Source: Cyanidioschyzon merolae
Lineage: Eukaryota
DNA: 64,000 nt
Strand: one strand, 5' to 3'
NCBI GenBank assembly: GCA_000091205.1
Contig: AP006502.2
Below are positions 1 to 49,345 of this stretch, piece by piece. The position numbers and the translations under genes were made by a program. Every line of letters begins with the position of its first letter. Position 1 is the first letter of the stretch. The notes beneath the pieces were generated by a model. It was not told the DNA's origin. It searched no databases and saw nothing but the letters and a program-made list of their open reading frames with translations.

Positions 1-2352
1 AAGTGTTTTTCGCAGTATAGAACGGAAGCGTTCAAAGAGCGTTCAAGAAATAAAAATAAAAAACTAAAAAAAGAAAAGTTATGAAAAAGCAAGTCCACGA
101 TCCTGGAGGCGCATTGGCGCCGGCTGCCAGAAAAAAAAAACAAAAAAACCGTACGGAATCCAGAAGAAAAGGAAGAGAGGAAGGACCGAAAGTGGGAGGC
201 CCTACGTTGAAGGCGGCAAGAAAGACAACTGTACGACGAGATGGTGGTGAAAGCCATTCATCTTGGACATATCAAGGATCCCTACAGGGGAAAGCTGCGA
301 GACGCTATCAAAAAGCGTGTCGACTCGTACTCCAAGAGTATTGTCAATGCGTCGTCGGGACTGATGTATTTGGCGAGGAAGATGTACGAAGACGTGAAGC
401 ACATGGAAACGGTCGAGATTCCAGACAAGTTTTTCGACAAGACGTTTATTCGTCACCTGATGCTTGGCACAGAGAAAGCGCGGATGGAAAATGAGCGGTT
501 GCATGTTCTCCACGAAAAACATCCCTTTTACAGCTTCAAGGGTACTCGAAACAAGGGTGACTGGGGTGTTTACGACTGCGGGTCGATGAAGTACATCACG
601 AATCTGAAGAACCATTTGACAACGAACCTCGAACGTTGCATGATACGCGCCGTATTTGCACTGTTCCCTGGCATCTCTCGCAGGAGGATATGGGCGATTG
701 TCAACGGCATCACGAATGATCGCAGGCATGAAGGTGAGGTCGAATTCGTCGACAGGAAGGCGTCAAAAGAGAGCACGAATGAAGCTTCTGTAATCCGTGC
801 GGTTATACAAGAGCACCGTGCAATCTTGGGGTTGGCAAATCCAACAGACAACATATCAGAGCTGAACAAAAGATAAGGAAAGATACTATCGCCTCGTCCG
901 GCGGTATATCGTGCTTCTGGACCGAGAGCTCGAACGCAAGGCAGAGATGAAGCTGAGCGAAGAGACAAATGACGAGTGGGAGAGATGGAAGGCGTTCCTA
1001 ATGGGTAAGCGCCTCAGCGTCGTTCCAATGTGCAACATCAAGTCACATTTTGCGAAAGTCGACCCCAACGCACATTACAGCAAAATGAAGGAGATCTGTC
1101 CGGAGGTCGATGTAAAGAAGACAGAGTTCACCGGTGAAAACCGGGAGACGTGCTGGAAGAATATCTTCGATTTCAAACGCCTCAAAGTCAGCAAACAAAA
1201 GGTATTTACTGGGTTGATCGAAACCGATGGAGTAGCCTTGTGTGTACACTATCGGCGGTTGAAGAGAGATCGTCCAGTTCCGCCCTCGGCTTCGCCCGTG
1301 ACGAAGGATGGAGATGAGAAGAAGGCGGATCCTGTGATGCAGGAGGTGTAGGATAACGCCTTTATGGTTGGCGCGGCGAAGCATGAAGAAAACAAGAAGG
1401 CGGGCCCTGAGACACAGAAAGTGCAGGATAACGATCTTGTCGTTGGCGCGGGCCCCGGGAATACGAATATCATAATTATCGCAGCACCGAAGCGTGCGGA
1501 AGATGGTACTGACAGCAACTTGCGTCAGAAAGACATGCGTCTTTTGAGGTTCTCGAGAGCGATATACTATCGAGAATCGGGTATAACGAATGCAAGGAAG
1601 AAAATTGGGACGTGGAATGCAGGAATGAAGGATCGCCTGGAAGCTTTGAGCGAGGTGACGAGCCGCGGAGCGGACTTTACAGCTTTTCGGAAATTCGTGG
1701 AAGATCGTGTTGCCCATTGAGATGCGCTGTGGGAGGAGTATACCAAGCCCGGTGGGCTCGTCTGCGATTGAATCTATACAGTGGGAGGCAGCGGGCGTTT
1801 GCCAATTTTTTCAATCAGCTGAGCGCCCTCAAGGAGGATGAAAATCAGAGGCTCGTAGTAGCGTACGGAGCAGGGCGATGGAAGACCCAAAAAGGGACTA
1901 CGCCAGCTCCAACGACAAGAACGTACAAGGAGTGTGCACGGCGTTTCGTTACGATACCAGTAGATGAGTTCCGAACATCGTATACACACCAAGAGTTGGG
2001 GTGTACACTTCAGAGAGTCGAGATGGAAAAGTGTCAGCGGAGCCCTGAGGAAATAGCAAAGTACGCACCGCTAACAGAAGAGCGAATGGAAAGAAGAGCG
2101 AAAGTTCGTGGACTACTTGCATTAGTGAGTACAACTCCCAACGGCATGAAACGCATGGAGTTTGTGAACCGTGACTTAAATGCCGCTATCAGTATAAGGA
2201 AATGTGCGGTGCTGGAGAACTGAACTCCAGAGTTGACACGAGAGAAAACTTTATTGGACAACCTCTCAAAGTGGAACTATATGAGAAACAGTTGGAAGCA
2301 GTAGTGGGTGGCCGGTCCAAGAAAACTGAGAGGCGTCTGCACGTCAGTTCAA
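1..2352 (+). mobile_element. TnpB/Fanzor-like transposon-associated element, copy 1. The left side runs off the window edge. The right end is inferred where homology to copy 2 stops, just after ...GTCTGCACGTCAGT.
   Basis: Homologous along its whole length to 24311..26553 at nucleotide and protein level. About 240 bp upstream of the first ATG are conserved in both copies. Confidence 0.6.
241..2223 (+). pseudogene. Fanzor/TnpB-like RuvC nuclease gene, decayed. Segments: ORF1 241..876, middle region 911..1351, RuvC region 1364..1720 and 1612..2223. Disrupted by an in-frame TGA and a 1-nt deletion at ~1715-1745, and by a premature stop plus frameshift at ~2219 before the conserved C-terminal tail.
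   Basis: Paralogous to the intact 309-aa ORF of copy 2. The RuvC-I-like motif here reads [16 protein letters not shown] where copy 2 has VVDADPGN. The C-terminal NRDLNAAISIRK matches the D-x-NAA-x-NI RuvC-III signature of TnpB/OrfB_IS605. A Cys/His cluster sits between them. A putative 36-nt GT..AG intron lies at 1346..1381. Confidence 0.6.
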
Positions 2353-2441
2353 GACGCTATGTCTAGGGCGCGGTTGCCGCCACTACTGTACACCGCTGGC
2401 GACAACGTTTTTCTTTCGAAAGGCGTTTGTTGTTGGCGGTG

Positions 2442-3773
2442 ATGGCGACTCTCACCCGAGCGTCTGTCCGCGTGCCCGTAGCGCAACAGGCGGAAGTTCT
2501 CAGAGCCAGCGAAAAAGATAAGCAAGTACGGAATGAGCTCGCACGGGCGCTGCAAAATATATGGCAAGGCGGCAGTATAGTCCTGGGCCGTTTCCTTCAC
2601 ATCCAGCGATTAAACCAACGCTGGTCGCGTGCACAGCGGGCCCCAAGTCGTGTGCCGTTGTCAACCGGGCAAGCGCAAGGAACGTCACGTTCTAGCACAC
2701 TGGGGAGTCTCCAGCAGCCGTGGGAGCCGCTTGGAGCACCACCGACAGCGTTTCGCTTTCTGAGTGACCTCGTCTTCTACTGGAGCACAGTGGGAATCGG
2801 TCGCCAAACACCCGGAGAAGAGTTTTGTGACCTTTTCGAGTGCACCATAGCTACCGGTGATCGCATCCAAGTGGCAACCCTATCTTGGAAACAGCGACTA
2901 TTGGAAACATTGCTCTATGCCACCATCGACTCTTTTCAGCTGCTTCTGTACTGGCTCCGGGTAGCACTGCGTCGAGTCGCCCGGTTCTTGGAGCGTGACT
3001 GGTACTCGCAATGTCTCTTGAGTCGCGAGAGACGCTGCCGAGTAGCCAGTACCTTACGTTTCGTAGACACTTGCTGCGCACGTCTGCAATTGCTACAAAG
3101 CTCCGATCGCCATGCACTGGCACTCACGATACAGTGGCTCATGCGTGTGCATCTTGCACTGTTCTATTTGTATGGGCGCTACTATGACCCAGCGAAGAGG
3201 CTTGCTGGTGTGCGTCTCGTGCATATTGGGCGGTCAAGGGCGTATTCACCTCGATATGATGCTCTAGGTCTTTTGCTCATCGTGCAGCTCGTCCTCGAAC
3301 CCATTGATGTGTTGATGCAGCGTCCAGCATGGAAGCGAAAGCTCCGCGTGCTTTTCAAATGGGCACTTGAGCTGTTTCGCAAAATGTATGCCAGTGTATC
3401 CACCTCGAAGCGAATCGCAGGTGATGGCGTCTCGCAGGCTCGGCCTCAGATGGTGACCGCTGTGCACACCACAGATCGATTCTCGGGCGAAGAAACCGGG
3501 CTTCCTGGCTCCAGAACGACAGATCAACAGCGGTCATGGTCTGTGGTATCGCCCAAATTCGAGCCTGTACCCACTGCAAGGCGAGCGCGAAACGAGTCGC
3601 GACACCGCTGCGTGCTCTGCTTGGATCAGTGCCAGGACCCCACATGTACTGCCTGTGGACACGTCTTCTGTTGGATCTGCATCCTGGACTGGGTGCGTCA
3701 GCAAAACTCTTGTCCAGTTTGTCGTCGAGAGGCACAGTTGAATGACTTACGTTGCCTCTACAGCCTCGGATGA
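2442..3773 (+). CDS. PEX10: Peroxisome biogenesis factor 10 (RING-type E3 peroxin). The ORF is open from 2427 (TTG); the first ATG is at 2442.
   Basis: The C-terminal C3HC4 RING CVLCLDQCQDPTCTACGHVFCWICILDWVRQQNSCPVCR closely resembles the PEX10 RING [25 protein letters not shown]...CPLCR. The N-terminal part is consistent with a Pex2/Pex12-type domain. Confidence 0.75.
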   Translation: MATLTRASVRVPVAQQAEVLRASEKDKQVRNELARALQNIWQGGSIVLGRFLHIQRLNQRWSRAQRAPSRVPLSTGQAQGTSRSSTLGSLQQPWEPLGAPPTAFRFLSDLVFYWSTVGIGRQTPGEEFCDLFECTIATGDRIQVATLSWKQRLLETLLYATIDSFQLLLYWLRVALRRVARFLERDWYSQCLLSRERRCRVASTLRFVDTCCARLQLLQSSDRHALALTIQWLMRVHLALFYLYGRYYDPAKRLAGVRLVHIGRSRAYSPRYDALGLLLIVQLVLEPIDVLMQRPAWKRKLRVLFKWALELFRKMYASVSTSKRIAGDGVSQARPQMVTAVHTTDRFSGEETGLPGSRTTDQQRSWSVVSPKFEPVPTARRARNESRHRCVLCLDQCQDPTCTACGHVFCWICILDWVRQQNSCPVCRREAQLNDLRCLYSLG

Positions 3774-4419
3774 ATTCATTGTATGCCTAAGCGTTCCGTG
3801 CTCGTCGGATCGCTGAAAACGCCCTAATATGACAGTGTCTAACCTGACGGTGATTGCACCCATGCCAGAATTGAGTGGAACAGGTCTTCCAATGTGGACG
3901 TAAACACGTACGAGAGGATCGATTCCAGTTGTCACCAACGCAAGCCATTGCAGGCGTTTTCTGCGACTGCTTCCTTTCTCTCTCTTGTATCGGGTATCAA
4001 GTACGTCGGTCTCCCACTGTCCCTCGAGCTACGTTGCCAGAAGTCGAAGGATGCTGGTAGCAAAATTAAATGAAGTCCCGATTACGCAGTTTCCGGTCGT
4101 TGTTGGCGCAATTCATGTACATGCGGGAGCTTCGATCTAAGCGCCGCATATTATTTTCATCTTCTTTGCGTGCTACCTCGGAACGCGCTTCGCCTGGATT
4201 TCGTCGGGTGTAACTAAGCGTGGACCACAGCGCTCCTCTAGGACTCGCCAAGTCAAGCGCAAAAGTGTACCTGATTGTTCAGCGCATTCTCTTGACGGGC
4301 ACAGAAGGCTGGCCTCGATGCCCGCTATGTTTCCGCGTCTGATGCCGTTCCGGAGATTGCAGGCTTCTGCAGAACAATTGCCGCAGCACGTACTCTGTCC
4401 GCTGTAGGTGCAAGCGCAC

Positions 4420-4620
4420 ACTCTTCCATTCAGCTGAGGTTTTGTGGAAGTCCATCGTATGCATGATGGGGCAAGTCGATCCATTCCGATCCTTTTATGC
4501 TCTTTCCAAAGCGATGACGCACGCTCCAGTGAACGCGATCATTGCGATGACTGAGGCCGAGTCTGGTTCGCTTTTCAATGAAACTAGTATCGTCGAAATT
4601 CTCTAAAGGCATACCCCGTG
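4420..4620 (-). repeat. Dispersed repeat family R, degenerate copy in inverted orientation.
   Basis: The plus strand at ~4490-4580 aligns to the reverse complement of 12070-12160 (...gatgacgcacgctccagtgaacgcgatcattgcgatgactgag...). It encodes a short peptide MTHAPVNAIIAMTE, matching the THAPLEAI-AMT motif of the other copies. Confidence 0.5.
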
Positions 4621-7188
4621 GAATGCATTACTCTGCTGCTCTCGGATGCCATTTGGTTGGCGATCTTATCGAAAACAGGTTTTCTTTGAACGACATCGAT
4701 TATTTGACTTGACGAATTCACGAAATGATCGGCATGAATTTGTGAGCAAGTCGTCGTGAGACAGCACCGAGATTTTTCCATTCCCGCCAAGGAAGCAGCG
4801 CGAATTGCGGCGTCTATGGGTCGCCCTGAAACAGGTAAATCAAAAAGATGAAGATTGCGTGATATGAACGTGCAACGTACAGGGAAAGGAAAGGAATAGA
4901 CTCTTGAACGCGAGAGTTGCATAATAATAACGGTCATGTCATGAAATCTGGTTCGAGAGCGAAGCGAATTAACTAGTGTCTGCTAAAGTAACAAATTCAA
5001 GCTGCGAGCAGTCGAAAAAGTCGCTCCGAAAGGACGCCGGAGAATCCTACAACCATCCATGAATCCGTATGCCCCAGTTGCGGCAGTCGGAATGACGAGA
5101 GTGTGTATCAGAAATGTTCGGAGAATACGTCGAATGGCAGAAACAGGGCGAGCACTTCAGTGTAACAATCTAACCCGACACGCTTACAGATGACGCGACG
5201 ACAATGGCCAAACTTGGTCTGATGCGCGCTTTCGTATTCATGGATATTCTACTCGAACCCTCTTTGCAATCCTTTTCCACCTCATGCGCGTCGGTACGCC
5301 GGCAAGCGTCCAGGCTGTGGAACGCATGCTCCCATTTTAGGTTCAAGCAGCATGCTTTGGGATGAAAACGCCCCCGTGAATCCATGATGAGCAGTAGAAT
5401 AGAAAACTGAATAAAGGGAATGGCTTTGGCTGCAGACCGAACGTCCGCTTGAAGAAACCCACATGGAATTGGTATACAGGCCCACGAAACGGAATTTTAT
5501 AGTGCAAAATCAAATATTCGAATCAGACTTCTCCCACGGCGTCGCTGCAGCAGTCTGTAATCAGGGACGAAACCACGGCAACTCCCCAGATCCGTCTGAG
5601 CTTCGACATCCCCACAAGAGGCTTGCCTTCCGAGACGGAATTTCGATCTATCCAGCATCGTCATATGCGCCGCCGCCGCTATGGCCGCTATCGCCTGCAG
5701 AGACATGATGGCGTTGTGGTGCTGTGAACTGCTTCAGCACGGAAAAACTGAATGGAATCATCCGGAAGCGAAAACAAGTTGCTACGTTCGTGCCGAGAGC
5801 GCCACTTGCAGTTTGAATACAGGCAACGCTTCTGATGATGTTTTGCTTGCGGCAACATGTGCCATAACCCCGGTACCACTGCAACGTGGGAGAAATGCTT
5901 CAAACTTGGACCCTTTCGAGACACGATCTCCGAACCCGTTTCGCCAGTTGAAAGTGGCTGTGCATCTTTTGGGCTCGAAGAAACATAGAGAGTCAAGAAG
6001 CTGCACTCTCCGTCGGCAAAGAGACGAACAAGACATGCATACGAGATCATAGACGTTGCATAGTCTGCAACATTGCTGCCTTCGTTGGGCCCAAGAGGCG
6101 AATCGCTGTATGGTCCGACACCGCAGTTGCCATTCGTTCAACGTTCTCTGCTAATGTTCTGGACGCTGCTCATTCGCTGTCTCTTTTAACCTGAGGCTCA
6201 CTCTAGAATAGGAACTGTACACGTGAGTTTCGAATACGAGGGGTATCCATCCGCAATCGCTCCCAAGGTTCTACAAGACAACTGGCAAGAAGAACCTAAT
6301 ACGTAACGTTCTTCCGGACAGCGTTCTTGCTCGGTGCAGTCAACGCCCGCTGTGCTACTATACTCTGTGACACGCAACGAATAAATAAATAGGCCTGAAA
6401 AGGCGATTTCTATTCTGGTGTCGTATGCAAGAACACGAGGCTCGTCTCGCAGCTGAGTATACCTCAGTGAACGATAGTCTCGCTGACGTCGATTCCAAGG
6501 ACAGCTTCACAACGGAGACGCCGTCTAGGTGCACAGGAAAAGCTTGTCCAGTGAGCCCATGGTGACAAGCTCCCCAGTTCGTCGTGGAATCAGTGACCAG
6601 CTGCGCTATGAAATAACCAGTCAGCAGCAAAGAGCCAAAGCGGTTACAAGTCCAGAGCCGAGTGCTCGAAATTGCTTGACAGGGTGCTCTCTCGTGCCTC
6701 TGCCTTCAAACGGCTCCTGCAGTCACTTAAAGTTAAGGAAGCAGACTGAGTGAGCTCCAAAAGCCGTGCGTGAGGCTCAGGGAACCGAAAGTACCCCATC
6801 AACCGAGACGCACCTCGTGCGCTACAGGCACCGGCTGTAGGAAAAGAAAACTTCGTTGAGCAACGTGCCTGCGCTAGGCAGTCAAGCGAGCAGGGAACTT
6901 TGCCGTCTCCACCTCTACCGCAGCCGCCGTACAGCAGCTTGCTCTATATGAACGCTACAAGATAGCTAGCGCGGAGTACCCATGCGCCAAGGTTGCCGCA
7001 GTGCCCCTCAAGGTCACCACCGGACTGCTCCGAGATGCCGGAGCAGCACGGGATTTCTTGCAGGCGCGCAGCGTACACGTTATCGCGTTGCTACCACTCC
7101 AGGGAAGGCTGTTTCAGGGCGGACTTGTAGACGGACCAGCACAGCTTTGAACTTGACAATCCCGTGAAGCAAAGGTGCGTTTGCGCCG

Positions 7189-10800: not shown

Positions 10801-11989
10801 CGATTTTGTGCGATTCTAATCGATAATTCCAGTTGCGACTTTAGCGTACAGTGGGCACTCGTGCCCGCTGATACAAGCGGGGAAGTAGAGAATGAAACAG
10901 AGGCGAATACAAGAGATGATGCTCGGTACGCTGACCAGACGTCAAATGGCGAGGGAATCGAAGGCAAGAGACAGGGTGTGATGTGATCTCACCAGCAACC
11001 GAGCGGAAAAGCACTCTCTGTAGCCGCATTTTAGCAGCTCGATCAATGTCCGGAAATACCTCGTGCTTCTTGAGCATCTAGCGGCGCTGCGTCTAGCAAA
11101 GTTTCAAGGGAGTCTTTTCGCACTCTATTCGGCATTGTGCTAAAACGTTGAAGTGCTCGAAGTGAACTATCAGTTCCCAAGCGAGATCGCATTCGAATCC
11201 CGCCCGAAGCAGGGTCCTGATACATGGCGGTTCAATAATCCAGAACGGCTGGGGCGCCTTTTACGTACACCGGGCACAATTTTTACGTGCTGTTGGCATA
11301 CGACTATGATGTTCCACGACTTGAAATTACTGAGTATATTCTTAATCGCTCGTAAAAGCACATGGTTCGTTAACGAAGGTGAGCCCCTTCCCCAGGGCTC
11401 GCCCGTGCAGGACAAACACGCGCGAGCGAACGCCACGCTCTACTCAGTTCAAAATGGAGTACTGAACTGCTCGCTCTTTTCCTGCAATTGGATCTTTTCC
11501 AGAACTATTTTCTGAATGAGCAGCCCCAAAATTCGAAGTACAGCAATGAGCGCCTACGGATTTACAGCTAGTTCAAGGAAGCTCCGTCGTTGGTTCCTAC
11601 TGGTTCCTTTGAAGCTCTGCCACTGGAATTCGGTGCTTCAACGAAAGTAAGATGATCGATTCGCCACTACCTCGAGCACGAGCTCCCAATACAATCGACA
11701 TTAGCATTCAATTCACACGCTCTAGCCTAGACTACTGCACTTTCCTTGCACATCCCATGCTCAAATCTACGATTCTTCTTGAATCTTCGACCATTCTGTG
11801 CCAAAGCAGCTCGTGGGCACTGCGCTTGGCACCGCTGGATTGAATACCAAAAAATCAAGTACTTTCATTGGGGACTTCTTCACAGGCGCATTCCGAAACT
11901 GCACTGAATATGCGACGCCAAATAATCGATTCCACTTAAAGGACAAATCCATCGCTGTTTGTGAGCATTCAGAGAACCGCATTCGACAG

Positions 11990-12350
11990 CAGCATGGCAT
12001 CAAGTACGGATTGTATGCTCCCTGAGGCCCCCATCTCTCCTGTTTGAATGGAAAAGTGTCTTCGACTCCGACTTGAGTCATCGGAGCGATCGCTTCCAGT
12101 GGAGCATGCGTCACGGCTTTGCATATAGGCGTATACACAGACAGAGAATTCTCGAGTTGTTTTGCAGCCTGGATTTTCCTTCCGGTGTATTCTTCATCAA
12201 GGACAAGACGGTACTCCGCAAATCATCTAGTAACTTGAATAGGATGCGCTTGCGTGTGCAGCAGGCAGCGTACCCGCCGAAAGGATCGCGCTGCTGTTGC
12301 CCGTGATCGTTGGTAACCGCAACAGGCGCGGAATCGGAGGCCAGCATCGA
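11990..12350 (-). repeat. Dispersed repeat family R copy. Minus-strand ORFs 12111..12347 and 11767..12138 carry the conserved THAPLEAIAPMTQV and GK-x-LQ segments.
   Basis: About 300 nt align at roughly 65-75% identity with 30040..30350 and with the 46830..47050 / 49550..49770 segments. Contains a GCGATCGC palindrome. Confidence 0.55.
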
Positions 12351-12966
12351 GCGGAGCCTCCTGTACCCGCCACAGGCACATGTGCCGGGCGATGGAGCAG
12401 GCGTTCACGCGCATCAGGGACGTCCCCGGAGGACGGATGTGCTCGACATGTGGGAACACCAAACACAGTCAAGTGTCACCGCTGCGATGAGCGCACCGAT
12501 GCTATATCAAGTGAAGATCCTGATGGCAAGCGACCAAAATTTGTCGGCGCTGCCTGAGCATGAATTGCGTCGTTAACAGCTGGAAGCAAAGAAATCGGTA
12601 CATGAACGCTGCCATCGCCATGCCCGGTTTTGTGACAAGTCAGCTTCAGGAACTAGAGAGTCCGACGTTTTGAGCCAGAGATACGAGAGCGAAACGGGTA
12701 ACAGTCGCAGCAGAAGCGAGTACAGGCGAGTGTTGATGACAGTGCGCGGAGACTCCAACCTCTTGTGTGCAGGCCCGAGTTAAGGACGTGAACCTGTCCC
12801 ACCATAGTCCGGTAGGGGTAGAGCACGGACGCAAGGACGTGCGTTCGTGGCAAGCAGGTTGGGCGTCTCGTCGAACGGTGCAAGTCTGCCGCGCGGAACG
12901 AGTGCGACCATTTCCAAGCGCCTCTTCCTTGCCGTTTCCCGCGAACGTCGTACGCGGGACGGCTGC

Positions 12967-12971: not shown

Positions 12972-12984
12972 ACAGAATCGAACA

Positions 12985-13071
12985 GGGACTCACGGGGACT
13001 TGAACCCCGGACCTCTCGCACGTTCTTCGGTAACTCCCGAAGCGAGCATTCTACCCCTGAACTATGAGTCC
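12985..13071 (-). tRNA. tRNA-Pro (anticodon CGG) with a 15-nt intron 3' of anticodon position 37.
   Basis: The reverse complement folds as a cloverleaf. Acceptor GGACTCA/TGAGTCC, D arm GTTC-AGGGGTA-GAAT, anticodon stem CTCGC/GCGAG, T arm CGGGG-TTCAAGT-CCCCG, discriminator C. The loop is TTCGGG + intron AGTTACCGAAGAACG + T. The intron CCGAAG pairs with the anticodon-loop CTTCGG. A run of T5 follows the 3' end. Confidence 0.8.
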
Positions 13072-13807
13072 CGTTTGTTGCTGGCGCCTGCGATCCACCT
13101 GCATCAGCACATCGCGACCGCCGAACTGTAGCAATTATTTGCGATATTCTATATATAAATGGTTGCGCTACGAGCGATGGCGATTGCGCGCGATTTTTTG
13201 CGACACATGTGTATATTAAGGACAGATTCATGGGTGATGCTTACGGTATTTCACCTCAACGGGGTTCCACTCGCAGATGCGTGGAATCAAGAGTGGTTTC
13301 GTGCTTAACAGCAACCACGTTCGAAGCGCGTTCATTAGAAGAAATAGAAAACCCAAGGGAAAGAATCGTCATCGAAGCGGCGGATCGAAGAGGGTCGGTG
13401 TCGTCGGGGTTTGACAAGGAAACGAAATAATCCTCTCCTCGCCGACCATCGAGCAAGGGAGAGCTACTGACGAAGAAAAAGAATAGTGGGGATTGGCGAG
13501 CAAAACTTGTTCGCCGTAGAGGACGATGATGAGACTAGAGTGGCACAGAGGGCAAGTGTTTGAGAAATCCCTGGACTGATGCATTGTACCAGAGGCATTA
13601 AAGTCAAGGAGTTCATGAACAGTTACTTGAACGCCGAACGCAATATTACACGATGTAAGATGCTGAAGACGAGAACCGTGGAGCTGACGCGAGCATTTTT
13701 GGGGCGCAACCTCTCAGGCTCGAAGTGTACAAAGAGAAACTGAAAACGATTGCAGGACGCTGGTCGAAAAAGGCTGGCAGCCGTCTGCGGGCGGATATCA
13801 ATTTACC

Positions 13808-19500: not shown

Positions 19501-20660
19501 AGCGCAGCGTCGCTTTCCCACGGCGAATCGCTCCTCTTGCATAATGAAGAACTGCACGACACAGAATGCTTTCGCACAGAACAGCTTCTGGAAAACCGAC
19601 TCCATGCGATGGAGTCAGACACTTTCGTTATTCCCTAAAATACAGGGTTTGCAACTATGTCATGCGTTATCCATCCGAGCTCGTTTCTGGGTCATGGAGC
19701 CGAATCCTGCCCGTGTATTCACCACATACCCGAGACAAGTGCCGTCAGCGCTAGCTCCCGGATGCTAACGAACCACGGATTGTTGGCGCGTTTCATTGCT
19801 CACAAAGGAAGCCCGTCAGCAGATGATGCCCGATGCGTATCGAAAGCGCCTCGTCCATCCCGGCCTGTGTCGAAATCGATTCGCATATTGTGCCATTAGC
19901 AGAGCAGTTTCCGCTGCCCACTTCCCCGACAAACATGCTCCGTAATGAGGCAGATGTGCGTGCATCGCTAGCGACTCGAGCGCGTCTCGCAGCTTTCGCT
20001 GTCCACACATCAACAAGGCGCCCCAGCACCGGGGCTGCTCCGCAGGTCACCACAGGGCTCTGCGGTCGCTTGTGGAACCCTTGTTCTGAACCTCGCTTCC
20101 ATTGAAACCACAGCGAGCACCCGAAAATACCCAAAACATTTCACAAATGAATAGAGGTCCGCGGCGATAGTGTCACCGCCAGGTCGCTACGAGTAGAAGC
20201 GGCTACGCTGCAACACAAGCGAGACTCCGTCGAGAGCTGCACGCCACGGCCCTGAGGAAATAGTCGGAGACAGACGCCACTAACAGGCACTTCGAATACT
20301 GGAAATCTTGTCGATCCATGCCACATTTACGCCTAGAAAACATCAGAAGCAGTTAACGAGTGAGCACATGGTATGTAACCGGTGCTTGGTGCTTGCACGC
20401 GTTTCGCCTGTATGTTGCAGTGAAGCGCGGCAACGCCGTGCGTGCATCCAACTGCTAATTCTGATCAGTCTCTATGAGACGCTTCCAGGCGAGGCCTATG
20501 TTGCATCCCGTAGGGCGCCCCGCTGGATGCCATGAATGCCGACGCGTGAACGTCCCTGAATCCAGCCCGAGGGCTTCGTCTGCACCTACCGTTTTGATCC
20601 AGAAGAACCCTGGACACATTCTCGAGTGCGGCATCGGAACCAAGATCCGACTGCGCCGCG

Positions 20661-21119
20661 TCAGAATACTATAGAACACTGGGCTGCTCGCTCTGTTCCT
20701 GCCTTGCGATATGTTTCCAAACCTTTTCGATATACAGTCTCGACATTCACATTGTGGTAAGCGCGGATGACGGATTCATGTGCAATGCTAGGATTCATGG
20801 TCATGTTTTCGAAGTGGCTGATTCGGCGCTTTGCAGCTGGGATTCGTTCTGTAACCAGAATCGTGATGAGCCGCAAACCCATCGAACACGAGTTCCTAAA
20901 ATAACCGATATCGTTCGCCAATACATATGTTTGTGCATCCATGCTCCTGCTCTCCGCATATATAGCATGCTCGGATACAGCATTCTTCAACTGTTCGATC
21001 TTTCCGTTCCGTGGTAACTTTTGGGAAGCAGGTAGCAGTGCGCAACATTGTGTAGAGGTGAAAGTATACTCGACTTGGTCGCTGGACGACATCCGCACAA
21101 GCGTATCTGGAAAGTTCAT
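20661..21119 (-). CDS. Hypothetical protein (152 aa, ATG start), no recognisable domain.
   Basis: ORF only. Confidence 0.2.
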   Translation of the reverse strand: MNFPDTLVRMSSSDQVEYTFTSTQCCALLPASQKLPRNGKIEQLKNAVSEHAIYAESRSMDAQTYVLANDIGYFRNSCSMGLRLITILVTERIPAAKRRISHFENMTMNPSIAHESVIRAYHNVNVETVYRKGLETYRKAGTERAAQCSIVF

Positions 21120-22146
21120 TCACTGACCTTGTCACGGCACATGAAAGACTCCTTTCGAAAGTCAAATATGCCTCTCTTCGGCGCCAGCGACGAACCGGCA
21201 TTCGGCAGAAGCATTGTACCGCTAGGGCACGATGCTCTTAAAGGATTTCGCCTTCCCCATTTCCATGAAACATGGTCTTGGACTCGGAGCCCAGTCGTCT
21301 CTCCCATCGCTGCTAGTGTAGAATGCGCCACTGTTTAGAAGAAGAGTGCGTTGATGGATGGAAGTTTCTTGACTTTTCATGCAGCATGGATATTCAGTGT
21401 GGTACTTGTGCCATCATGCACATCAACGTGTCCCGCAGATCCTCTATCGACTGGAAGAAAGTGCGCTTGTAAATGCAGCGGATAGCGTACTCGGGGCAGG
21501 TATCGCGCCGAAGAAGCCTGTGAGCTTCGGTATGGAACCGGGCACGGAAACGGTGCAGGACACCGAGGCGAGCCTTCTGTGCCCGTCATAGGCGTGCGCC
21601 GAATGATAAACCAAAAGCTCGCGTGCCACAGGGCGACTCTCTCAGAGAATAGGGTGCGATGGACCTAAATGAGTACCTGACTATATTCAAGTGTGATAGC
21701 TGCGAATAACGCACCGAGGCTGCATGCATAGGAGATGACAATGGAAAGCGATGCCTAGATATCAACTACTGTCTGTGCATCAAATGCAGCGACAAAAGCC
21801 GGAAGCAGCGAAATCAGGAACTGAACGCAGCCACCAACAACGTTCGAATCGTGACAACGGAGCTGAAGACAAGGGCAGACCGACGAACGTAAAGCCGGAG
21901 ATAAGACAAAGGAAAACGAAGCCGTCCCAGATAAAGCTCGCAAAGGCTGGTCGTCATGACATGAGGAAAAGACCCAAACTTTACGGTGTACGCTCGTGTT
22001 CGCAAAGTGGGCCCGCTCCATTTCATTCTGATAGGGGTGCAAGCGACCTCTGGTCCAGACCTGAGGCAGATGCGCGCGATTGCCAGACTGCGTCTCATGA
22101 ACGCAGCGTATTGACTGTGGACGTCAGCGCACGTCAAGCTCCGCTC

Positions 22147-23769
22147 TTAAGACGGAGAACGCTCCCAGCTCTGGCTGGGTATTCGGTCCGAACGCAGATA
22201 GAAGACGCTCGTCACGTACCGCTCGTGATACCTTCGCGTGAGGACGTACTTGTGCACATGGCGCACATTTGCGGATACCCCGCTGGGAACTATGTACAAA
22301 TGGTTCAGGGTCACTGTAACAGGTCTTGGAGGGAACAAATCAACCTCGCCCCGCTCTCGTCGCAACTGTTCTTCTATGAATTCGTTTGGAGTCATCTCAA
22401 TTGGCAAGCGAGGAGCCGTTTCCTCGCCAAGCAGGACAGGCAGCGGCGGTGGCTCACGATGAAAGCCCGACTCGATACCTGGAATTGCGTTATCATAGCT
22501 GCCAACAGGGCTCTGTTCCCGCCGGAAGACCTCGCTCGCGCGCTTCGTTCCAGGCAAGAAATCATCCTGTACCAGAAACTCGCCAAAGAAAGGTTCCACC
22601 CGAATGAAGTTGTTCACATTACCGTGGGCATCCCGAGCGACCATTTGCTCGGGCGCATACCGCCACTCGCCGTCTACAACATACTTGTACTGATAGTCAC
22701 CAGGTTCTAGATTAAGGAGAATGTAAAAGGCGTTCCCGCTCCGATGCAGTGGATGACGCCGCTTCCACCCGTCAAAGGAGCCCGCGACTTCCACACCCGC
22801 AACGGCGCCGTGGTGCCAGTTGAATGCCACTGGAACCAGGTTCCGCTGCGGGACTTCTAGGAGCTCCATTTCAGCCAGCTTGGTTTCGGTATCCTCGAGC
22901 TGTGGTGTGTGCACGACGCCGTGGTCCACAGAGCGCCTTGGTGGCACCTCGGCGCCTCCGTGCTCTCTCGAATCACTGCCTAACGCAGGAGGAAGTTGCA
23001 TGGCGCTCGGCAGAGGAGGCGGCCCCGAGGCAGACGCTTTCGCTTGGAGGGCGTTTTCACTCATTCCAGAGGTTTCTGGCACAGCCCAGCCCGGAGCGGC
23101 TCTTGGTACCCCACCACTAAAGTAGGACTCCATGCCCAGGCTTGCGGGACTGTGCGGGCTGAGCCTCGGGCTTATTGCCGCAGGCGCGGCGCCTACGGAG
23201 GCCGCAGCAGCGAGTGCCGCAGCACTCCGCTCCGACAGCGCTGCTGAGCCCCGTGTGAGGACTCGCGAGGCCGCGGCGGGTGCCCCTGGACCACCCTCTC
23301 GAGAGAACGAGTGTCCCATAACGCCAGCAACGGCAACTCCAACGTTGCCAAAACCGTTGTTGCTGCGGGACGCACCCGTGCCTCCAAGGAACAACGTTGT
23401 CAGTCGCGCGCGATTGGCGTCTTGGTAGGAACGTTCAAAGGAGTCGGATGCCGGCAGGTGATTCCCTTTTCGATGACAAAACGTTTCCATGAACCATGGA
23501 TCCCAGTTTGCGGAATGGGTATTCGTAATCGAAAAAAAAGGTTCATCATGCGGCAACAACCTGCATGTTCCATGAACCAGATATCCTCTCGGATACACTG
23601 GTCGTTTCGTGCGCTCTATCGTGTGCCAGTTGTCTGCCTGGCTGCACTCGCAATAGCAGTCATACCGCTGGAGCAGATGCAGCACGGAGACAGAACCGCT
23701 TTTCCATACCACTGAGGGCTTCGACTCGATGCTTGGTTCATCCGAGACCGGGTCGGAGTACATAATCAT
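22147..23769 (-). CDS. AMPK/SNF1 kinase beta subunit (CBM48 glycogen-binding domain plus ASC domain). The ORF is open from 23784 (TTG); the first ATG is at 23769.
   Basis: VPVAFNWHHGAVAGVEVAGSFDGWKRRHPLHRSGNAFYILLNLEPGDYQYKYVVDGEWRYAPEQ matches the AMPK-beta GBD. C-terminal ...TLNHLYIVPSGVSANVRHVHKYVLTRRYHERYVTSVFY matches the ASC domain. A long Ala/Pro-rich linker separates them. Confidence 0.8.
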   Translation of the reverse strand: MIMYSDPVSDEPSIESKPSVVWKSGSVSVLHLLQRYDCYCECSQADNWHTIERTKRPVYPRGYLVHGTCRLLPHDEPFFSITNTHSANWDPWFMETFCHRKGNHLPASDSFERSYQDANRARLTTLFLGGTGASRSNNGFGNVGVAVAGVMGHSFSREGGPGAPAAASRVLTRGSAALSERSAAALAAAASVGAAPAAISPRLSPHSPASLGMESYFSGGVPRAAPGWAVPETSGMSENALQAKASASGPPPLPSAMQLPPALGSDSREHGGAEVPPRRSVDHGVVHTPQLEDTETKLAEMELLEVPQRNLVPVAFNWHHGAVAGVEVAGSFDGWKRRHPLHRSGNAFYILLNLEPGDYQYKYVVDGEWRYAPEQMVARDAHGNVNNFIRVEPFFGEFLVQDDFLPGTKRASEVFRREQSPVGSYDNAIPGIESGFHREPPPLPVLLGEETAPRLPIEMTPNEFIEEQLRRERGEVDLFPPRPVTVTLNHLYIVPSGVSANVRHVHKYVLTRRYHERYVTSVFYLRSDRIPSQSWERSPS

Positions 23770-24310
23770 TCTGGGGGTCAGCAAGCTGCTCAGAGAGGCT
23801 TACTTTCTGCGACTGCGCGAATCGACATGCAAGGAGACCACTGCGACCAGGGCGATGCCCAGACCCAGCATACCCAATTCGTGTCCCAGAATAGATTGCG
23901 TTGCGGACGGCTGCCCTGATCTCACGAAAGGACCCACCACTGGGAGGCGCATGAAGCACGAGTCTGGCGGACTTGTCCGGCTCGCGGGACCTTCCGCCTA
24001 AAGGATGAATTTTCGACAATATGGAAACCGCTCTCCCCTTTTAACGTGTTTCGCAGAGAAGGAAAGAAATTTTTATCCAGTTGCAAGGTTAGAGGTTAGT
24101 CTCTGTCCATGTTTGTGTATAGCGCGGTTGATACGCGCACCTTGAGATCCAGCAGGCGTGAGATCCGACGTGCATCTCGCCCTTGAAGGGAAACGCGATC
24201 CTAATCAATAGCACGTTGGTATGACGTACAGGTTGTATTTGCATTGCATGTATCTCATTTTATAGTCTTTCAATTCAATGCTTTTTCAACCATCACGTTG
24301 GTATATTCAT

Positions 24311-26553
24311 GTGATTTCTCGCGGTTTCTAACTGAAGCGTTCAAAGTGCTCTCGTGCTAAAAAATAAAAAAAGAAATTCATGGAAATAGAAGTGGAGGAC
24401 CCTTGAGGCCTTATGTCGTCGGCTGCCGGAAAAAACGGAAAAGAGTCCCGAGCCACGTGGAGCATGGGAAGATGTAGAAGCAAAAGAATGAGGTCCGACG
24501 CCAAAGGCTGCGAGAAAGACGAAATTACGACGAGATGTCGGTGAAAGCCTGTCTCCCTAAACATATCAAGGATCCGTACAAGGAAAAGTTGCGAGAGGCC
24601 ATCAGAAACCGTGTCGCGTCGTACTTGACCAATGCTCGTCACGCATCTTTAGGATTGATGTATATGGCGAAGGAGATGTATCGCGACGTGATGGAAATCA
24701 AAATATTCGAGCTTCCGGACGAATGTTCCGACAAGACCTTTATTCGTCATCTGATGCTTGGCACAGAGGAAACGTCGAGAAGAAACGAGCGAGTGCATGC
24801 CCTCCACGAAAAATATCCCTTCTACATCTTCCACGGTACTCGATACAGGATAAGAGTGATATTTACGAAATCGGGGCGAAGAAATACCTCACGAACCTGA
24901 AGAACCATTTGACAATGAACCTCGAACGTTTCATGATACGTGCCGTGCTTGCATTCTACCCGGGCATGTCTCGGCAATGAATATGAGCGATTATCAATGG
25001 CATAACGAACAATCGCAAGCATGAACAGGAGATCGAATTCGTCGACAAGAAGACACCATGCAGGAAAAGGTGTAAAACTTCTGTAATCCGTGCGGCGATT
25101 CAAGAGCGCCGTCCGGTACTGGGGCTGCTCAACCCATCAGAAAAAGTAGCAGATATGGGAAAAACATTATTCTCTCATCCTGCGCTATTTCGTGTTTTTG
25201 GACCGAGAACTCGAACGCAAGGCCGAGATGAAGCTCCGTGTGGGAAAAAACGAAGAGTCGGAGAAACGGAAGGCTGCGCTTCTGAGGAAGCGCTCCAACG
25301 CCGTTGCGCAATGCGGCGTCAAGTCACACATTTTGACAATCGACTCCAGAGCCCTTTTCCGCATCACGAAGGAGATAAGTCCGGAGTTCGATATAAGCAG
25401 GGACGAATTTATGGATGAAAACCGAGTAACTCGTTGGAAGAATATCTTCGATTTCAAACTCCTCAGAACGAGCGCGCAAAAAGTATTCACGGGAACGATC
25501 GAAAGCGATGGGGTATCCACGTGTGTTCACTACGGGCACCTGAAAGTGTATGATCCTTTTCCATCTTCCATATGACCCTCGGCGAAGCATGAAGAGAAGA
25601 AGGAGGCAGATCTTGCGAGGCAGAAAGTGCAGAAGAACGACTTTGTGGTTGACGCGGACCCCGGAAACACGAACATCATAACCATCGCAGTACCCAAGCG
25701 TGCGGAAGATGACATTCACGGTAGCTTACGTCGGAAAAACATGCGTCTTTTGAGGTTCTCGACAGCAAGATACTATCGAGAATCCGGTATGATGAATGCG
25801 AGGAAGAAAATCGAGACATGGAATGCAGGAGTGAAGGATCACCTGGAAGCTATGCGCAAGGTGACGAGCTGCGGAGCAGACTTTCGAGCTTTTCGGGAGT
25901 TCATGGAAACTCGTGCTGCCCATAACGAGAAGCTTTCGAACGAATATGCCAGGCCCCGGTGGGCTCGTCTGCGAATGAACCTGCTCTGTGGGAAGCAGCG
26001 TGCATTCGCCAAATTCTTGAATCAGTTGAGCCCCCTCAAAGAAAACAAGATCCAAAGGCTCGTAAAGGCATATAGAGCACGACGCGAGGCGTCAGGAGAA
26101 GGCAGCACACCAGCGCCATCGACGAGAACGTACAAGGAATGCGCACACCGTTTTGTCACAATACCGATAGACGAGTTCCGAGCGTCATACGTCCACCATG
26201 ATCTGGGGTGCACAATCCAGAGAGTCGAGATGGAAAGGTGCCAGCGAATTCGTGAGGATATCAAAAACTTCGGAGCGCTGACGGAACAACAAATGGAAAG
26301 GAGGGCACAAGTTCGGGGATTTCTTGCAGTGGTGAGTTCCATCTCGGGCAAAAAACGCATGGAGTTCGTGCACCAAAACATAAACGCCGCTTTCAATATC
26401 AGGAGATGTGCAGTGATGGAGAAGAGATCTCCGCATCTGGCGCGAGCCAACTTTATGGGGCAGCCTCTCAGGGTTAAAGTGTACGAGGAGAAGTTGAAGC
26501 CAGTAACAGGCGGCCGGTCCAAAAAGCCTGGGAGGCGTCTCCACGTCAGTGTA
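24311..26553 (+). mobile_element. TnpB/Fanzor-like transposon-associated element, copy 2. Both ends are inferred from where homology to copy 1 stops.
   Basis: Collinear with 1..2352. The conserved upstream block ...gaagcgttcaaag... begins near 24311. The conserved 3' block ...GGCGGCCGGTCCAAAAAGCCTGGGAGGCGTCTCCACGTCAGT ends at ~26553. Confidence 0.65.
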
Positions 26554-28214: not shown

Positions 28215-30039
28215 GCTGGGAACGACTGACACTTATGGCGCCTCCACAGAACACTAAACCAGTTTTTGCTAAACGCTGTGAGAAATCCGTATCGCCTTCG
28301 TCTCCGAGCTTCCACGGCTCGAAACTTCGTCAGCGCTGTAAGTTACGTCCACTTCGTGCGGCCCTCTTCGCGAGTGCTTGTGCGTCTCACGCACAAGAAA
28401 GAGGTGTACGGAAGCAGATGCGTATATCCGACAAGACTCTTTCAGAAGAGAGTTGTTCAGGAGCTGATAAACTAAGCTTCAAAGCTTTGCTGCTGCTTCC
28501 TTTCCAGTACACGCCACGAAAGAAGTGTCTCAGAGGAGTCTGTCGAAAGATGGCAGGACTCGTACCGACTGGCGTGGTGGAGCGGGATCCCGGGGCACGG
28601 CCCCCAGCGAGTCGGTATTGCGCGATCCGGCAACACAGGCGGACGCACAACAGACGCGCTTCACACATGTACATGACTGGAAGGGTGTTCAGGGAACCCG
28701 TCGATGATCACGCGACTGAGATCAATGGCTCAGAAGACAACAACCGAGGCGTTCTATACAAACATCCAGATGAACTCAGAGGTGCACTCACTGGTTGGGA
28801 CAGGCTGAACCTGCATTCGCTATACTAGGGGATTACCAAGCCCGCAGCGGGGTCCGCTAGACCGCCTCGACAGCTACCTGGGTTTATGCGCTCTAGTCAC
28901 GACACTTTGATCGAGACCTTTTCGAGCAGAGCGCATCTCGGATGCGGTTCAAATGATTCACCGATACCCGACTCGTCAACGCATTTCAGAGTCTGCAGGG
29001 ACGGCACGGCACCCGTACGGTCGCATCGCCTTGAGTGAGCTCGAATGCAGATCAGTATGGCTATCGGGACAGGAGCGAGCGATTTGCTTCGCCATTCGCT
29101 TGGTAAGCGGCATCGCCGATCAGAACGCGATATGCATATCGAGTTCTCGCATCATCGAATCAAGATGCTCGCTATGATTTCGTCGGGGAATATGGCGATT
29201 TGCGGCAGGTGCCACCAGCGTCGTGTTGGAAAAAGATGAACGAGTACGTATCCATTTGTTCGATGTGAGGCACCTTGTGTTCTAGATCACTCGTCCACAC
29301 TTATTCTGAGGTTATTTTGAATCCAAAAACGAGTTGCAAGCGATGTCATTCGGCGCGGTTGCATCTACTAGACCATCCATAAATCTTTGTGGGTATTGCA
29401 TTTCCGGGGTGTCCGCCGCAGACGCAAGTACGCCGCTTTGATTCGTCCGCTCGAACACGGTGATCCATCGATCTGTGAGCTAGACACCACAAGTCGATTG
29501 ACATATGACTCCAGACGGTACGTGGTTAGGATGGAACGCTGGGCTATTCGCTCTGTTCCTGGCTCGTGATTTTTTCCGTATTTGTCTGATGCACAGCCTT
29601 GGAATGCGAGATACAGCAATAAAAACTTTCGGACGCTCATGCAATCCATGGATGCTCAGCTGTCTTTTCGGCATGACTCCGCCAATTCTTTACCACTAGA
29701 TTTCGATACAGTACCGGAATCATGATGATGCGCAATGCCCTGCAACCAAGATTTGTAAAATGAGCCATATCATTATCCAGTGCTTACGTAAGAGTCTCCA
29801 AACTTCTCCATGCCTAATAGGTCGCTCGCTAAAATCACGCATTCTTCAAGTTTTCGATCTTTCTCTTTCAAGGCAACTCGCGGGAGCAGCTAGGCTCGCC
29901 ACTGGATTGAGGAGAAAAAACTCAACTCTATCTTTTGGCGACTGCTTGACGCGCTCAAGTTGCGTGCAAACTGTACTTGTCCGACAGAGTAATCGATTCT
30001 GTTCGAAAGATAAATCCTCCACGCTTCGTGGCCATCGAC

Positions 30040-30350
30040 GAAACGGGATGCCTTACCAGAATGATACCTCTCAGGTGATATTCGCCCACAGGCTCCGGTC
30101 TCTTCTGTTTGTAATGAAAAGGGTATTGGACTGGGACTTCAGTCATCGCAGTGATCGTCTCGAGAGGAGCGTGCGTCCCCGTTTCGCGTGACAACAACAG
30201 AGACGGATCATAAATTTCTTGACTTGTTCTCCAGTCTGGAGTTGCTTTCCGGCACTTGCTTCATCATGGACCACACCGTGTCCTATACATCCTCGATCAA
30301 ACGGAACAGGGTGCTTCTGCGGGTGAAGTGAGCAGAGTACTAGCAAGGAA
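30040..30350 (-). repeat. Dispersed repeat family R copy.
   Basis: Aligns to 11990..12350 (tgtttgtaatgaaaagggtattggactgggacttcagtcatcgcagtgatcg... and ...ttgttctccagtctggagttgctttccggcacttgcttcatcatggacc...). Minus-strand ORFs encode THAPLETITAMTEV and a GKQLQ segment. Confidence 0.55.
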
Positions 30351-31189
30351 CATCACCCAGAAGAAGCTCTTGATCGAATGTAACTGGCCAGGTGCCGAAA
30401 AAAAAAGCAGAATATCGAGGGCGGCTTAGTGTAACGGCCGAGAGCATTCGCTAAGCGAAGAGGCAAGCGGTCACGTGCCACAGGATAGCCCTCAAAGAAG
30501 GAGCCATTAAGGGCATATGCGAACACCTGATCACATCCAACTGGCACCTCTACCGAGAGCTTACCCAGATTGAACATTAGAAGAAGAATCACATTGTCGG
30601 TGAAGTGTAGATCGCCACTACCGCCAGTACATGAAATGCGACAACAACAGTCCGAAGCAGCAAAACCAGGATCTGAACACTGGAAACAACATTCTTCCAT
30701 AGCGGATAGCCGAACTGGAGGAACAGGAGCGATCGGTGAACGCTACGTAGCAGATACGAGAGAGGAAACTGAAGCCGTCGCAGAACAAGCCCGCATATGC
30801 TCGTCTTGATGGTCGCTGGATGCTACATAAACTATAGAGTACAAGACCGTGTCAGAGGTCCCGTTTCATTTTTTGTTCTGACAGGAGTGGAACCCGCTCT
30901 TGAGGGATGCCCCGGTTCCCAGTTACCGCGTTGCCGTGCTTTCCGCCTCGATGGAGTGCCCCGCGGGTTGCCGTCCGGCCGCCGTACGTGTTCGTGCGCA
31001 CGCAAATGGCCCCCGCCAGGATCGTCGCGCGATGCGCATGCATCGACGCGTGCGTGCATCTCGGCCTCGGGACGCATCCCGAGTGCTACCAGAGATTCCA
31101 TTTCCATTGAGCATTTTGTTGCATACGCTGACACAACACGAACGTGTATCTGTTGGGTGTAATACTGAACAGCTATTTCGCTTTGAAAC

Positions 31190-37558: not shown

Positions 37559-38534
37559 GCGTCTAGCGAGTATCCCTTGTACTCAGATTTTCTGGATGTT
37601 GTCAGCGATGAGAGACGCTTTTCTTATTTAGATAGTTCTACGTTCCGCAAGGCACGGATCTGTGGTCTCGTCGGAACTGGGGAAAACGCTGTGTTCAAGC
37701 AGATAGATCGTGTGTCGGTCTTCTGTTAGCCTCTCGTTGGGCATGTGATCGAATCCTGATCGCGCGCGCGCGCGTGCTTAACAGGTAGGCCCAAACCTGT
37801 GGAGATGCGTTGACCGGTGACCGACACAGGCTTGTGTTCAGCTGCTGGACGATGTGGCAGCATGGGCGCTCTTTCGACTGGGAAAAGAGGGATGCGTGTC
37901 GGAGGAACGCAGTCTCGTGTAGATACACCCGTTGCTTCTGGAGGCTGCAGTATAGTCCAGCGCCGCGTGCTGGTCGTTTTCGTGGACGGGGCTGTACGGG
38001 GCTCGGAAATTGTCCACCAGTCGCTGTGTTTGTGCGATCGTGCGCATTTGCTAGGGAAGGAAGCGGATCATCGGGGGCACGGGCCGTGTCGATCGCGAGT
38101 CGATTTCAGGACATGCGAACACCCGCCCAGAACTTTCATGAATAAACCAGTCTTCATGTGCGAGCTCGGAGCGTCTAGCAGACACCCGGCCTCTATTCAG
38201 ATCGGGGCACGAGCCGTGTCGAAGTGATGCAGGGCTGCAGTCTCGTTCCGCTGACCCGCACCACGACCCGCGAGCAGCATCCATCACGGGAGCGCTTCTC
38301 AAGCCGACGCCTCCAGAGGTACGGCAGGCACTCGTCGCTCAATAGAACGTACGAAACGACCGATCCGTCTGAGAAGAAGTATGGGGAATGGAACTTGGGT
38401 GCATCGCAATGGGGGCGTTTTCGGAATGCCAGCAGCCATTCCTGCGATCTGCGAGACGCGAGCGCAATGATCTCGCAGCGCGCAGCGCATTGGGCGAGCG
38501 CTGCAGTTCGTGAATCCGAGTCGCTCGAAGCGTC

Positions 38535-44984: not shown

Positions 44985-45225
44985 GGTGCGCTTCCGCTGG
45001 TCCAGTAGCGCGGCGCGGCGTATTTGCCTAAATTCAACAAGTCAATTGACTTAAGGATCTGTTTTCGGCAGTGAGCGCTGGTGCAGCGCAGAAGCGCAGC
45101 GTATTTTCCCTAAATTCAACAAGTCAAATGACTTAAGGATCTGTTTTCGGCAGTGAGCGCTGGTGCAGCGCAGAAGCGCAGCGTATTTTCCCTAAATTCA
45201 ACAAGTCAATTGTCTTAGACAAGCC
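44985..45225. repeat. Tandem repeat of about 2.6 units of ~82 bp. Each unit carries the 14-nt perfect palindrome AAGTCAATTGACTT.
   Basis: The unit cgtattttccctaaattcaacaagtcaattgacttaaggatctgttttcggcagtgagcgctggtgcagcgcagaagcgcag is repeated at 45019, 45101 and 45183 (the last partial). It lies 70-310 bp upstream of the eS30 start codon. Confidence 0.8.
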
Positions 45226-48842: not shown

Positions 48843-48917
48843 AGAAACGGAGATGAATGGGCCCAGCTGGCAACGTTTGACCGGTGAGCGAGCCGGCTCT
48901 CCAGCTAGATGCCAGAT

Positions 48918-49303: not shown

Positions 49304-49345
<42 letters not shown>

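Follow-up and report, generated by a model that had tools for sequence, protein, structure and literature searches.

Positions 11,990 to 12,350 of a 64,000-nucleotide stretch of DNA from the hot-spring red alga Cyanidioschyzon merolae (contig AP006502.2; this whole stretch is called the window below) belong to a sequence that recurs in the window in several diverged copies, which raises the questions of what this repeat is, how far it extends and whether it codes for anything. The window consists of intron-poor eukaryotic DNA with ~54% GC and harbors genes coding for a Pex RING peroxin, AMPK-beta, RB, a RecD2-like helicase and an aldehyde dehydrogenase; two of its proteins are present with identical sequence on JGI metagenome contigs, two of whose sample prefixes probably denote hot-spring metagenomes. 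The initial annotation described a repeat of ~300 nt with a conserved small-ORF motif, and suggested either a transposable element in fragments or a multicopy gene in decay.

Extent and copies of the repeat family

The five segments listed initially are homologous (BLASTN self-matches, E 1e-16 to 1e-42) and form one repeat family (D1). However, their ~300 nt are the best-conserved core of a real element of ~1.38 kb: tblastx homology between copies spans ~1.4 kb, the copies are collinear over ~1.4 kb in a multiple alignment, the repeat families D17, D1 and D15 obtained by repeat detection in the window keep constant spacing among copies, and the consensus element is 1379 bp long. The number of copies, given as at least five, is seven in the window, including two that had been missed (20652-22039 and 40152-~41934, the latter on the minus strand). 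Their occurrence in both orientations is confirmed, u4 and u40 lying on the minus strand and the other five window copies on the plus strand. The identity, first reported as ~65-80%, amounts over the full element to a pairwise median of ~55%, and to 70-75% with the consensus; values of 64-72% are reached in BLAST-local segments only. A palindrome said to be shared by the copies, GCGATCGC, is present in a single one (at 12086), and its two occurrences in the window compare with 3.3 expected by chance.

Copy coordinates were mapped from a 17-sequence alignment to the consensus. The copy that contains the segment noted earlier, u12 (11436-12820, plus strand), is a full relic of 1385 bp delimited by remnants of terminal inverted repeats (TIRs) at 11436-11460 and 12796-12820. 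Its transposase-derived part lies at 11516-12224, with the region of the first catalytic Asp at ~11964-11996 and that of the second at ~12202, and its Fanzor-derived part at 12224-12762. It carries seven frameshifts and four stops in the last 294 codons and is matched by the Fanzor homologues P0004 and P0006 in tblastn (E 2e-5 to 7e-5). Other full-length relics are u21 (20652-22039, plus strand, 1388 bp), recognized from repeat families D1, D15 and D17 and from the alignment, with five frameshifts and six stops and a tblastn match to P0006 (E 2e-10); u30 (29513-30889, plus strand, 1377 bp), which matches the transposase P0003 (tblastn, E 1e-6); the inverted u4 (3857-5186, minus strand, 1330 bp), with six frameshifts and five stops; and u50 (48904-50402, plus strand, 1499 bp), which matches P0003 (tblastn, E 2e-11) and P0001 (E 6e-13), and whose extra length corresponds to a (GAC)n run and a 73-bp tandem duplication at 49962-50107. 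Finally, u40 (40152-~41934, minus strand) is a different internal-deletion derivative of the same parent.

The remaining window copy, u47 (46197-47408, plus strand), is a recent DNA-level duplicate, 95-98% identical, of the first 1.2 kb of u50. The placement of one copy within a duplicated block, already noted, is borne out by BLASTN (46206-47316 vs 48913-50034, 97.9% identical), which also reveals a second block (47241-47408 vs 50032-50199, 94.6%). The 3' end of the element is missing from u47, and a search for a 3' TIR there found none. The duplication as a whole (46206-47408 vs 48913-50199) has a spacing of 2.7 kb, and its start nearly coincides with the 5' TIR. The 73-bp tandem duplication of u50 sits where u47 ends, and the (GAC)n run is present in both copies with different lengths (46600-46630 and 49302-49343). 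Ectopic recombination and gene conversion are candidate mechanisms for this duplication.

A search of JGI metagenome contigs with a stitched consensus peptide identified 10 further insertion sites (22 loci collapsed), which lie between ordinary genes. No long ORF is present in any metagenome copy of the relic. At L019/L020 (~2400-3000), the window copies also match in reverse just upstream of the main match, and two copies of the family may be arranged head-to-head there.

Two truncated genes in the consensus

A nucleotide consensus of 16 copies (1616 nt) restores long frames on the strand opposite to the peptides of the initial annotation. In frame 3, nt 237-1019 contain an ORF of 261 aa that starts MYSLDIR and reads MYSLDIRSTAIRAY...VVIDETAF...FIMDNIAFHKSS. 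This ORF matches the Pfam domain DDE_3 (PF13358; E=4.5e-11, 43.2 bits vs cut-off 28.6), for which individual copies give only weak matches. The HTH scores of the consensus are all below the Pfam cut-offs (HTH_Tnp_Tc3_2 E=1.7e-4, HTH_33 E=3.6e-4, HTH_32 E=1.6e-3), and it aligns from residue 1 with P0007, whose HTH_Tnp_Tc3_2 match passes the cut-off. The first (VVIDETAF) and second (FIMDNIAF) catalytic Asp are both kept. A complete D, D, E/D triad is absent from the consensus, because transposase homology ends just after the second D and Fanzor sequence then starts; this fits a non-autonomous derivative rather than an active member.

In frame 2, nt ~940-1480 read ...ALARAADRVLAEGIAQKKPVIVGYGTGRGNGGGHRGEPSVPVKGMYRAMKQ...VVDIWEHLTTAKCHRCE...FRLCMKCVDNSRKQRNRDLNAAINILRLL..ERPAYLKPE and match Cas12f1-like_TNB (PF07282; E=4.9e-7, 30.2 bits vs cut-off 26.3). 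The C-terminal signature of Fanzor proteins, which are eukaryotic RNA-guided nucleases of TnpB type, consists of [TS][TS]-x-x-C4 zinc finger-x(5,50)-RD (Bao and Jurka 2013, PMC3627910), the first catalytic Asp lying 125-275 residues upstream. The C-terminal motif is found in the consensus (HLTTAKCHRCE...FRLCMKCV...RNRDLNAAINIL), and the first catalytic Asp, in RuvC-I, is deleted from the main 1.38-kb form, which has Fanzor homology only from P0004 residue ~301-320 onward.

The two parts are delimited by tblastn onto the consensus. The frame 3 alignments of P0003 (E=9e-48, 39%) and P0007 (E=3e-24, starting at residue 1) extend to FIMDNIAFHKSS. P0004 (E=8e-37, residues 301-525), P0006 (E=4e-27) and P0001 (E=5e-34) align in frame 2 over their C-terminal part only, in a stretch running from ..ALARAAD..KKPVIVGYGTGRGNGGGH.. 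to RNRDLNAAINIL..ERP.YL.P, and Fanzor homology begins only at ~900-940. The end of one homology and the start of the other lie within ~10 nt of each other and in different frames, at a junction placed within ~±10 nt on a consensus in which an indel error is conceivable. Since transposase homology stops where Fanzor homology starts, out of frame, the unit is a chimera of two truncated genes, a 3'-truncated transposase gene joined to a 5'-truncated Fanzor gene. No match of either part to any solved structure was obtained in sequence searches with the consensus, profiles and P0004, nor any match in an NCBIfam search.

The main guess made initially therefore holds: the family is a DNA transposon in decay. 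Its copies do not represent host-gene exons. Moreover, the repeat, which could not then be placed in a known superfamily, is assignable to IS630/Tc1-mariner (DDE_3) with a Fanzor/TnpB remnant, from the Pfam and tblastn results.

Terminal inverted repeats and a second derivative

The consensus is bounded by TIRs, CACCCGTGTCAGATTAAAATGGAAC (nt 160-184) and the reverse complement of nt 1514-1538 matching at 22 of 25 positions, a score that none of 300 shuffled controls reached (maximum 18). These TIRs sit where inter-copy homology starts and stops. Repeat detection does not find them in single copies, where they are too decayed, and they are visible only in the consensus. The dinucleotide next to the ends has T at -2 in ~10 of 13 ends and A at -1 in ~5 of 13; the flanks are decayed and the TSD is unreadable.

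The layout of u40 comprises the 5' end and transposase residues ~20-93 (41906-41575), then Fanzor from ~147/234 to its end (41320-40292), then the 3' TIR. Consensus nt 188-516 align to 41906-41575 (E 2e-30) and nt 944-1521 to 40752-40169, while P0004 residues 234-343 align to 40995-40666 (E 9e-22); the 5' piece, which was outside the training set, is also picked up by nhmmer (E 5e-35). This copy keeps Fanzor sequence that is absent from the main form, including, in mutated state, the RuvC-I stretch (AVIGNGFEQRV vs AIVKGLDPGRV, compared by eye), just upstream of the start of the confirmed alignment at P0004 residue 234. No intact parent of the exact family is present in the window or at the 10 extra sites.

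Decay and age of the copies

A frameshift-aware alignment to the consensus protein revealed 3-7 frameshifts and 3-6 stops in the last 294 codons of each window copy, and no copy can now encode protein. Relative to the consensus, dN/dS amounts to 0.92 for the transposase frame and 0.80 for the Fanzor frame, with values of 0.78-0.97 in the control frames (four on the plus strand, as well as every minus frame tested). Among 16 copies, no codon position differs more often than the others; hints of codon periodicity obtained from 6 copies were gone with 16. Neither a CpG nor a RIP-like bias is apparent in the substitution spectrum. Distances between copies are much the same for all pairs (median 55%, best 60% identity, in a comparison that took in u47 but not u50, the two being recent duplicates), giving a star phylogeny. 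Insertions are found at the same loci in four metagenome samples and are fixed; u30, for example, is present at the same locus in all four with 99.0-99.4% identity. Differences between samples amount to 0.6-1.3% in the relics and to 0.1-0.6% in most neighbouring genes, with up to 1.1% in AMPK-beta. Taken together, the pseudogene state, the control-like dN/dS, the star phylogeny and the fixed insertions point to an old burst followed by neutral decay. We consider it highly likely that the family descends by internal deletion from a mariner–Fanzor1 composite transposon, and that it is non-autonomous, extinct and decaying neutrally.

The persistence of many 1.4-kb relics in a streamlined genome of 9-18 Mb, and their fixation in the four samples, could also be read as retention for use, be it regulatory, as structural chromatin or as former carriers of a guide RNA (ωRNA). 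In characterized TnpB/Fanzor systems the ωRNA is encoded in the 3' end region, and the Fanzor 3' end and 3' TIR are kept in all window copies except the truncated duplicate u47. Such co-option is nevertheless unlikely: conservation is roughly uniform along the element with the non-coding ends least conserved, the relics differ between samples more than most genes do, substitution is neutral along a star-like phylogeny, and no Rfam match at gathering threshold was obtained except one tRNA outside the element. Any covariation signal of a guide RNA would have been erased by the neutral decay that followed the burst.

Segmental duplication of a host region at the DNA level, in place of transposition, is a very unlikely source of the copies. 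The pair u47/u50 is a clear recent segmental duplicate and the ~9 kb spacing of u12, u21 and u30 looks regular, but the flanks of different copies are unrelated and homology starts and stops at the TIRs; furthermore, the copies lie in both orientations and at 10 unlinked sites, and all pairs but u47/u50 are about equally distant.

Reading frames on the opposite strand

The related peptides of the initial annotation (THAPLEAI... and a shared GK-x-LQ block) do exist, but they are not a coding feature, being on the wrong strand, without Pfam match and with neutral dN/dS. On the sense strand, the THAPLEAI peptide corresponds to the best-conserved transposase segment (sVIAAIASSGAC...) and the GK-x-LQ block to ...LDFPSGT...; the peptide similarity is shared ancestry read on the antisense strand. 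ORFs of 120-210 aa in several copies and a 260-codon open minus frame in the consensus would suit small minus-strand genes kept by selection, and neither tblastx nor ORF length could choose the strand, the six frames scoring alike. Such genes are, however, extremely unlikely, as the minus-strand consensus ORF, which contains THAPLEAIAAMT, has no Pfam match, the minus-frame dN/dS (0.78-0.97) is the same as in controls, other consensus frames are also long and open, and homology to two real protein families is found on the plus strand (E down to 1e-47). Moreover, the minus frame partly shares codon boundaries with the plus-strand Fanzor frame, and such an antisense frame would stay open if the sense strand is without TTA, CTA and TCA codons.

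That the whole unit is a decayed stand-alone Fanzor/TnpB gene without transposase part has just as little to commend it: the C-terminal TNB and RuvC-III motifs are present and a plus frame (VLDSDSS...) could pass for RuvC-I, but the 5' two-thirds of the 16-copy consensus match DDE_3/HTH transposases from residue 1, with Fanzor homology confined to the part beyond ~900-940. A 7-copy consensus had been taken for such a pseudogene, which was dropped once the 16-copy consensus revealed the DDE transposase in another frame.

Intact relatives and known systems

Of the transposases related to the consensus, P0003 is an intact protein of 286 aa with DDE_3, and P0007, also intact (307 aa, DDE_3 and HTH_Tnp_Tc3_2, starting MYSLDLRNTAIR), is encoded on an element-sized contig of 3273 nt, where the gene for a 636-aa PF07282 protein directly follows. 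At ~61-3132, L038 (ENA ERZ19565769 scaffold, 3610 nt) harbors a composite element of ~3.07 kb that appears to be intact. It encodes a DDE_3 transposase of 306 aa and a Fanzor1 of 657 aa, the latter with 30% identity to CMe-1 along its entire length (E=3e-82), which suggests that CMe-1-type Fanzors also travelled in mariner-type elements. The TIRs of L038 start CACTC and are each preceded by TA as far as read, short of the outer 3' flank; those of the relic family start CACCC. The P0010 loci resemble the layouts of P0007 and L038.

Mariner–Fanzor1 composites such as PUl-1 of Pythium ultimum have been described (Bao and Jurka 2013, PMC3627910). The parent inferred for the relic family would share with PUl-1 and L038 the layout TIR – IS630/Tc1-mariner transposase – Fanzor1 – TIR and a length of ~3-3.6 kb. 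The PUl-1 transposase shares 27% identity with P0007 over 310 aa, and that of L038 shares 29% with the consensus transposase over 235 aa. In contrast to these two elements, the family consists of 1.38-kb remnants, internally deleted and out of frame, in which no gene is intact and the TSDs are unreadable, and its Fanzor piece is 42-47% identical to P0004, P0006 and P0001, as against 26-33% to the Fanzors of PUl-1 and L038. Similarly to Tc1/mariner internal-deletion derivatives and MITEs, it keeps both TIRs, has lost transposase function and is present in many copies, and it was presumably amplified by trans-mobilization. At 1.38 kb, it is larger than a typical MITE, and it contains recognizable remnants of two genes, the deletion joining two different genes. 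With bacterial IS630 and TnpB (IS200/IS605, IS607) it shares DDE_3 and Cas12f1-like_TNB and the C-terminal pattern TT-x-K-C-x-x-C ... C-x-x-C ... RD-x-NAA-x-NI, whereas it has a eukaryotic host, unites both genes between one pair of TIRs and carries a Fanzor part related to eukaryotic Fanzor1.

P0001, P0004 and P0006 are solo Fanzor genes on gene-dense contigs of 51-56% GC (L031-L036). These contigs also code for a 2625-aa Peptidase_S74 protein, an RNA ligase, a 2OG-Fe(II) oxygenase, Rpb2, a UvrD helicase and ATG8, and may be giant-virus genomes. No transposase or similar TIR lies alongside their Fanzor genes, IMG/VR scans with P0004 and P0003 gave no relatives, and a viral source of the lineage is only a possibility.

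Relationship to CMe-1A

The C. merolae Fanzor1 family CMe-1A (~150 copies, 3169-bp consensus) was reported without TIRs, transposase or classification and is the sole Fanzor family given for this species, the mariner–Fanzor relic being unmentioned (PMC3627910). BLASTN locates copies of CMe-1A at window positions 1-2425 and 23471-26550, with 81-90% identity to the published consensus, as well as small fragments, and gives no match to the relic consensus or copies. The Fanzor ORF is broken into several frames in both copies, and the second one is full length, including the ~840-bp non-coding 5' region. Judged by this lack of nucleotide similarity, the relic family is distinct from CMe-1A. The two are found in the same host lineage and both carry Fanzor1-type sequence, whereas only the relic family has TIRs and a transposase part and their protein similarity is distant. 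Identity to CMe-1 is 24% over 163 aa (30 bits) for the consensus Fanzor piece, and 26% over 418 aa (55 bits) for its closest intact relative, P0004 (551 aa); by this homology to a published Fanzor1, the Fanzor piece is a putative member of the Fanzor1 group. A relation between the TIRs of the relic family and the CMe-1A ends was looked for, and none could be demonstrated.

In elements of ~570 bp at 13253-13807, 45497-46069 and in L022/L025 (~1701-2210), a promoter-proximal stretch of CMe-1A (consensus ~735-939) is fused to the CMe-1A 3' end (2889-3008), which gives these elements the look of CMe-1A copies shortened by internal deletion. Twice, a mariner–Fanzor relic is found immediately downstream of such a mini element, at 45.5-46.2 kb of the window and in the unlinked L022/L025. 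Fragments of the CMe-1A 5' non-coding region (consensus ~31-189, 75-81%) are present at 38323-38454 and 47923-48030, both inverted, and an inverted pair of such fragments at 23559-23625 and 47961-48027; they may be related to the TE-N2_CMe family, which shares the first 635 bp of CMe-1A (Bao and Jurka, PMC3627910). The sole Rfam match of the window at gathering threshold, a tRNA-Pro(CGG) of 89 nt (12984-13072, minus strand) that possibly contains an intron, from its length, lies between u12 and the adjacent mini CMe-1A element. In addition, two perfect-looking two-copy tandem repeats are found in unique sequence, at 45023-45186 and 56971-57132 (82 bp and 81 bp, 98% identical).

Origin and significance

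The ancestor of the relics was probably a composite Tc1/mariner element (IS630-like, DDE_3) of ~3 kb, with the order TIR – transposase – Fanzor1 – TIR. Through an internal deletion, it lost about the last fifth of the transposase with the third catalytic residue, and about the first 55-60% of the Fanzor with RuvC-I; the two remnants were thereby joined out of frame in a 1.38-kb derivative that retained both ~25-bp TIRs. A full-length partner would have mobilized this derivative in trans, by cut-and-paste on its TIRs, in a single ancient burst of copies. The parent would since have become extinct in this genome, and every copy has decayed neutrally, to ~27% divergence from the consensus.

It could further be imagined that the derivative spread as a guide-RNA-bearing passenger that used the Fanzor of its partner in trans for homing or retention, and that the mariner–Fanzor lineage perhaps came from a large DNA virus. 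The first idea arises because the multiplied derivative kept the Fanzor 3' end and the 3' TIR, where the guide RNA is encoded in characterized systems, and the second because the contigs that carry the closest intact Fanzor relatives are gene-dense and contain virus-like genes; we hold this scenario to be speculative and rather improbable.

The relics are ordinary genomic debris that reveals no new mechanism, and they account for ~10 kb (15%) of the window. For annotation, they call for caution, as their long antisense ORFs should not be called genes. They would represent a second Fanzor-bearing transposon lineage for Cyanidioschyzon, of mariner type, where the literature that we searched describes CMe-1A only. 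Together with the intact L038 element and the P0007 contig, they support the idea of Tc1/mariner elements as vehicles of Fanzor1 in algae.
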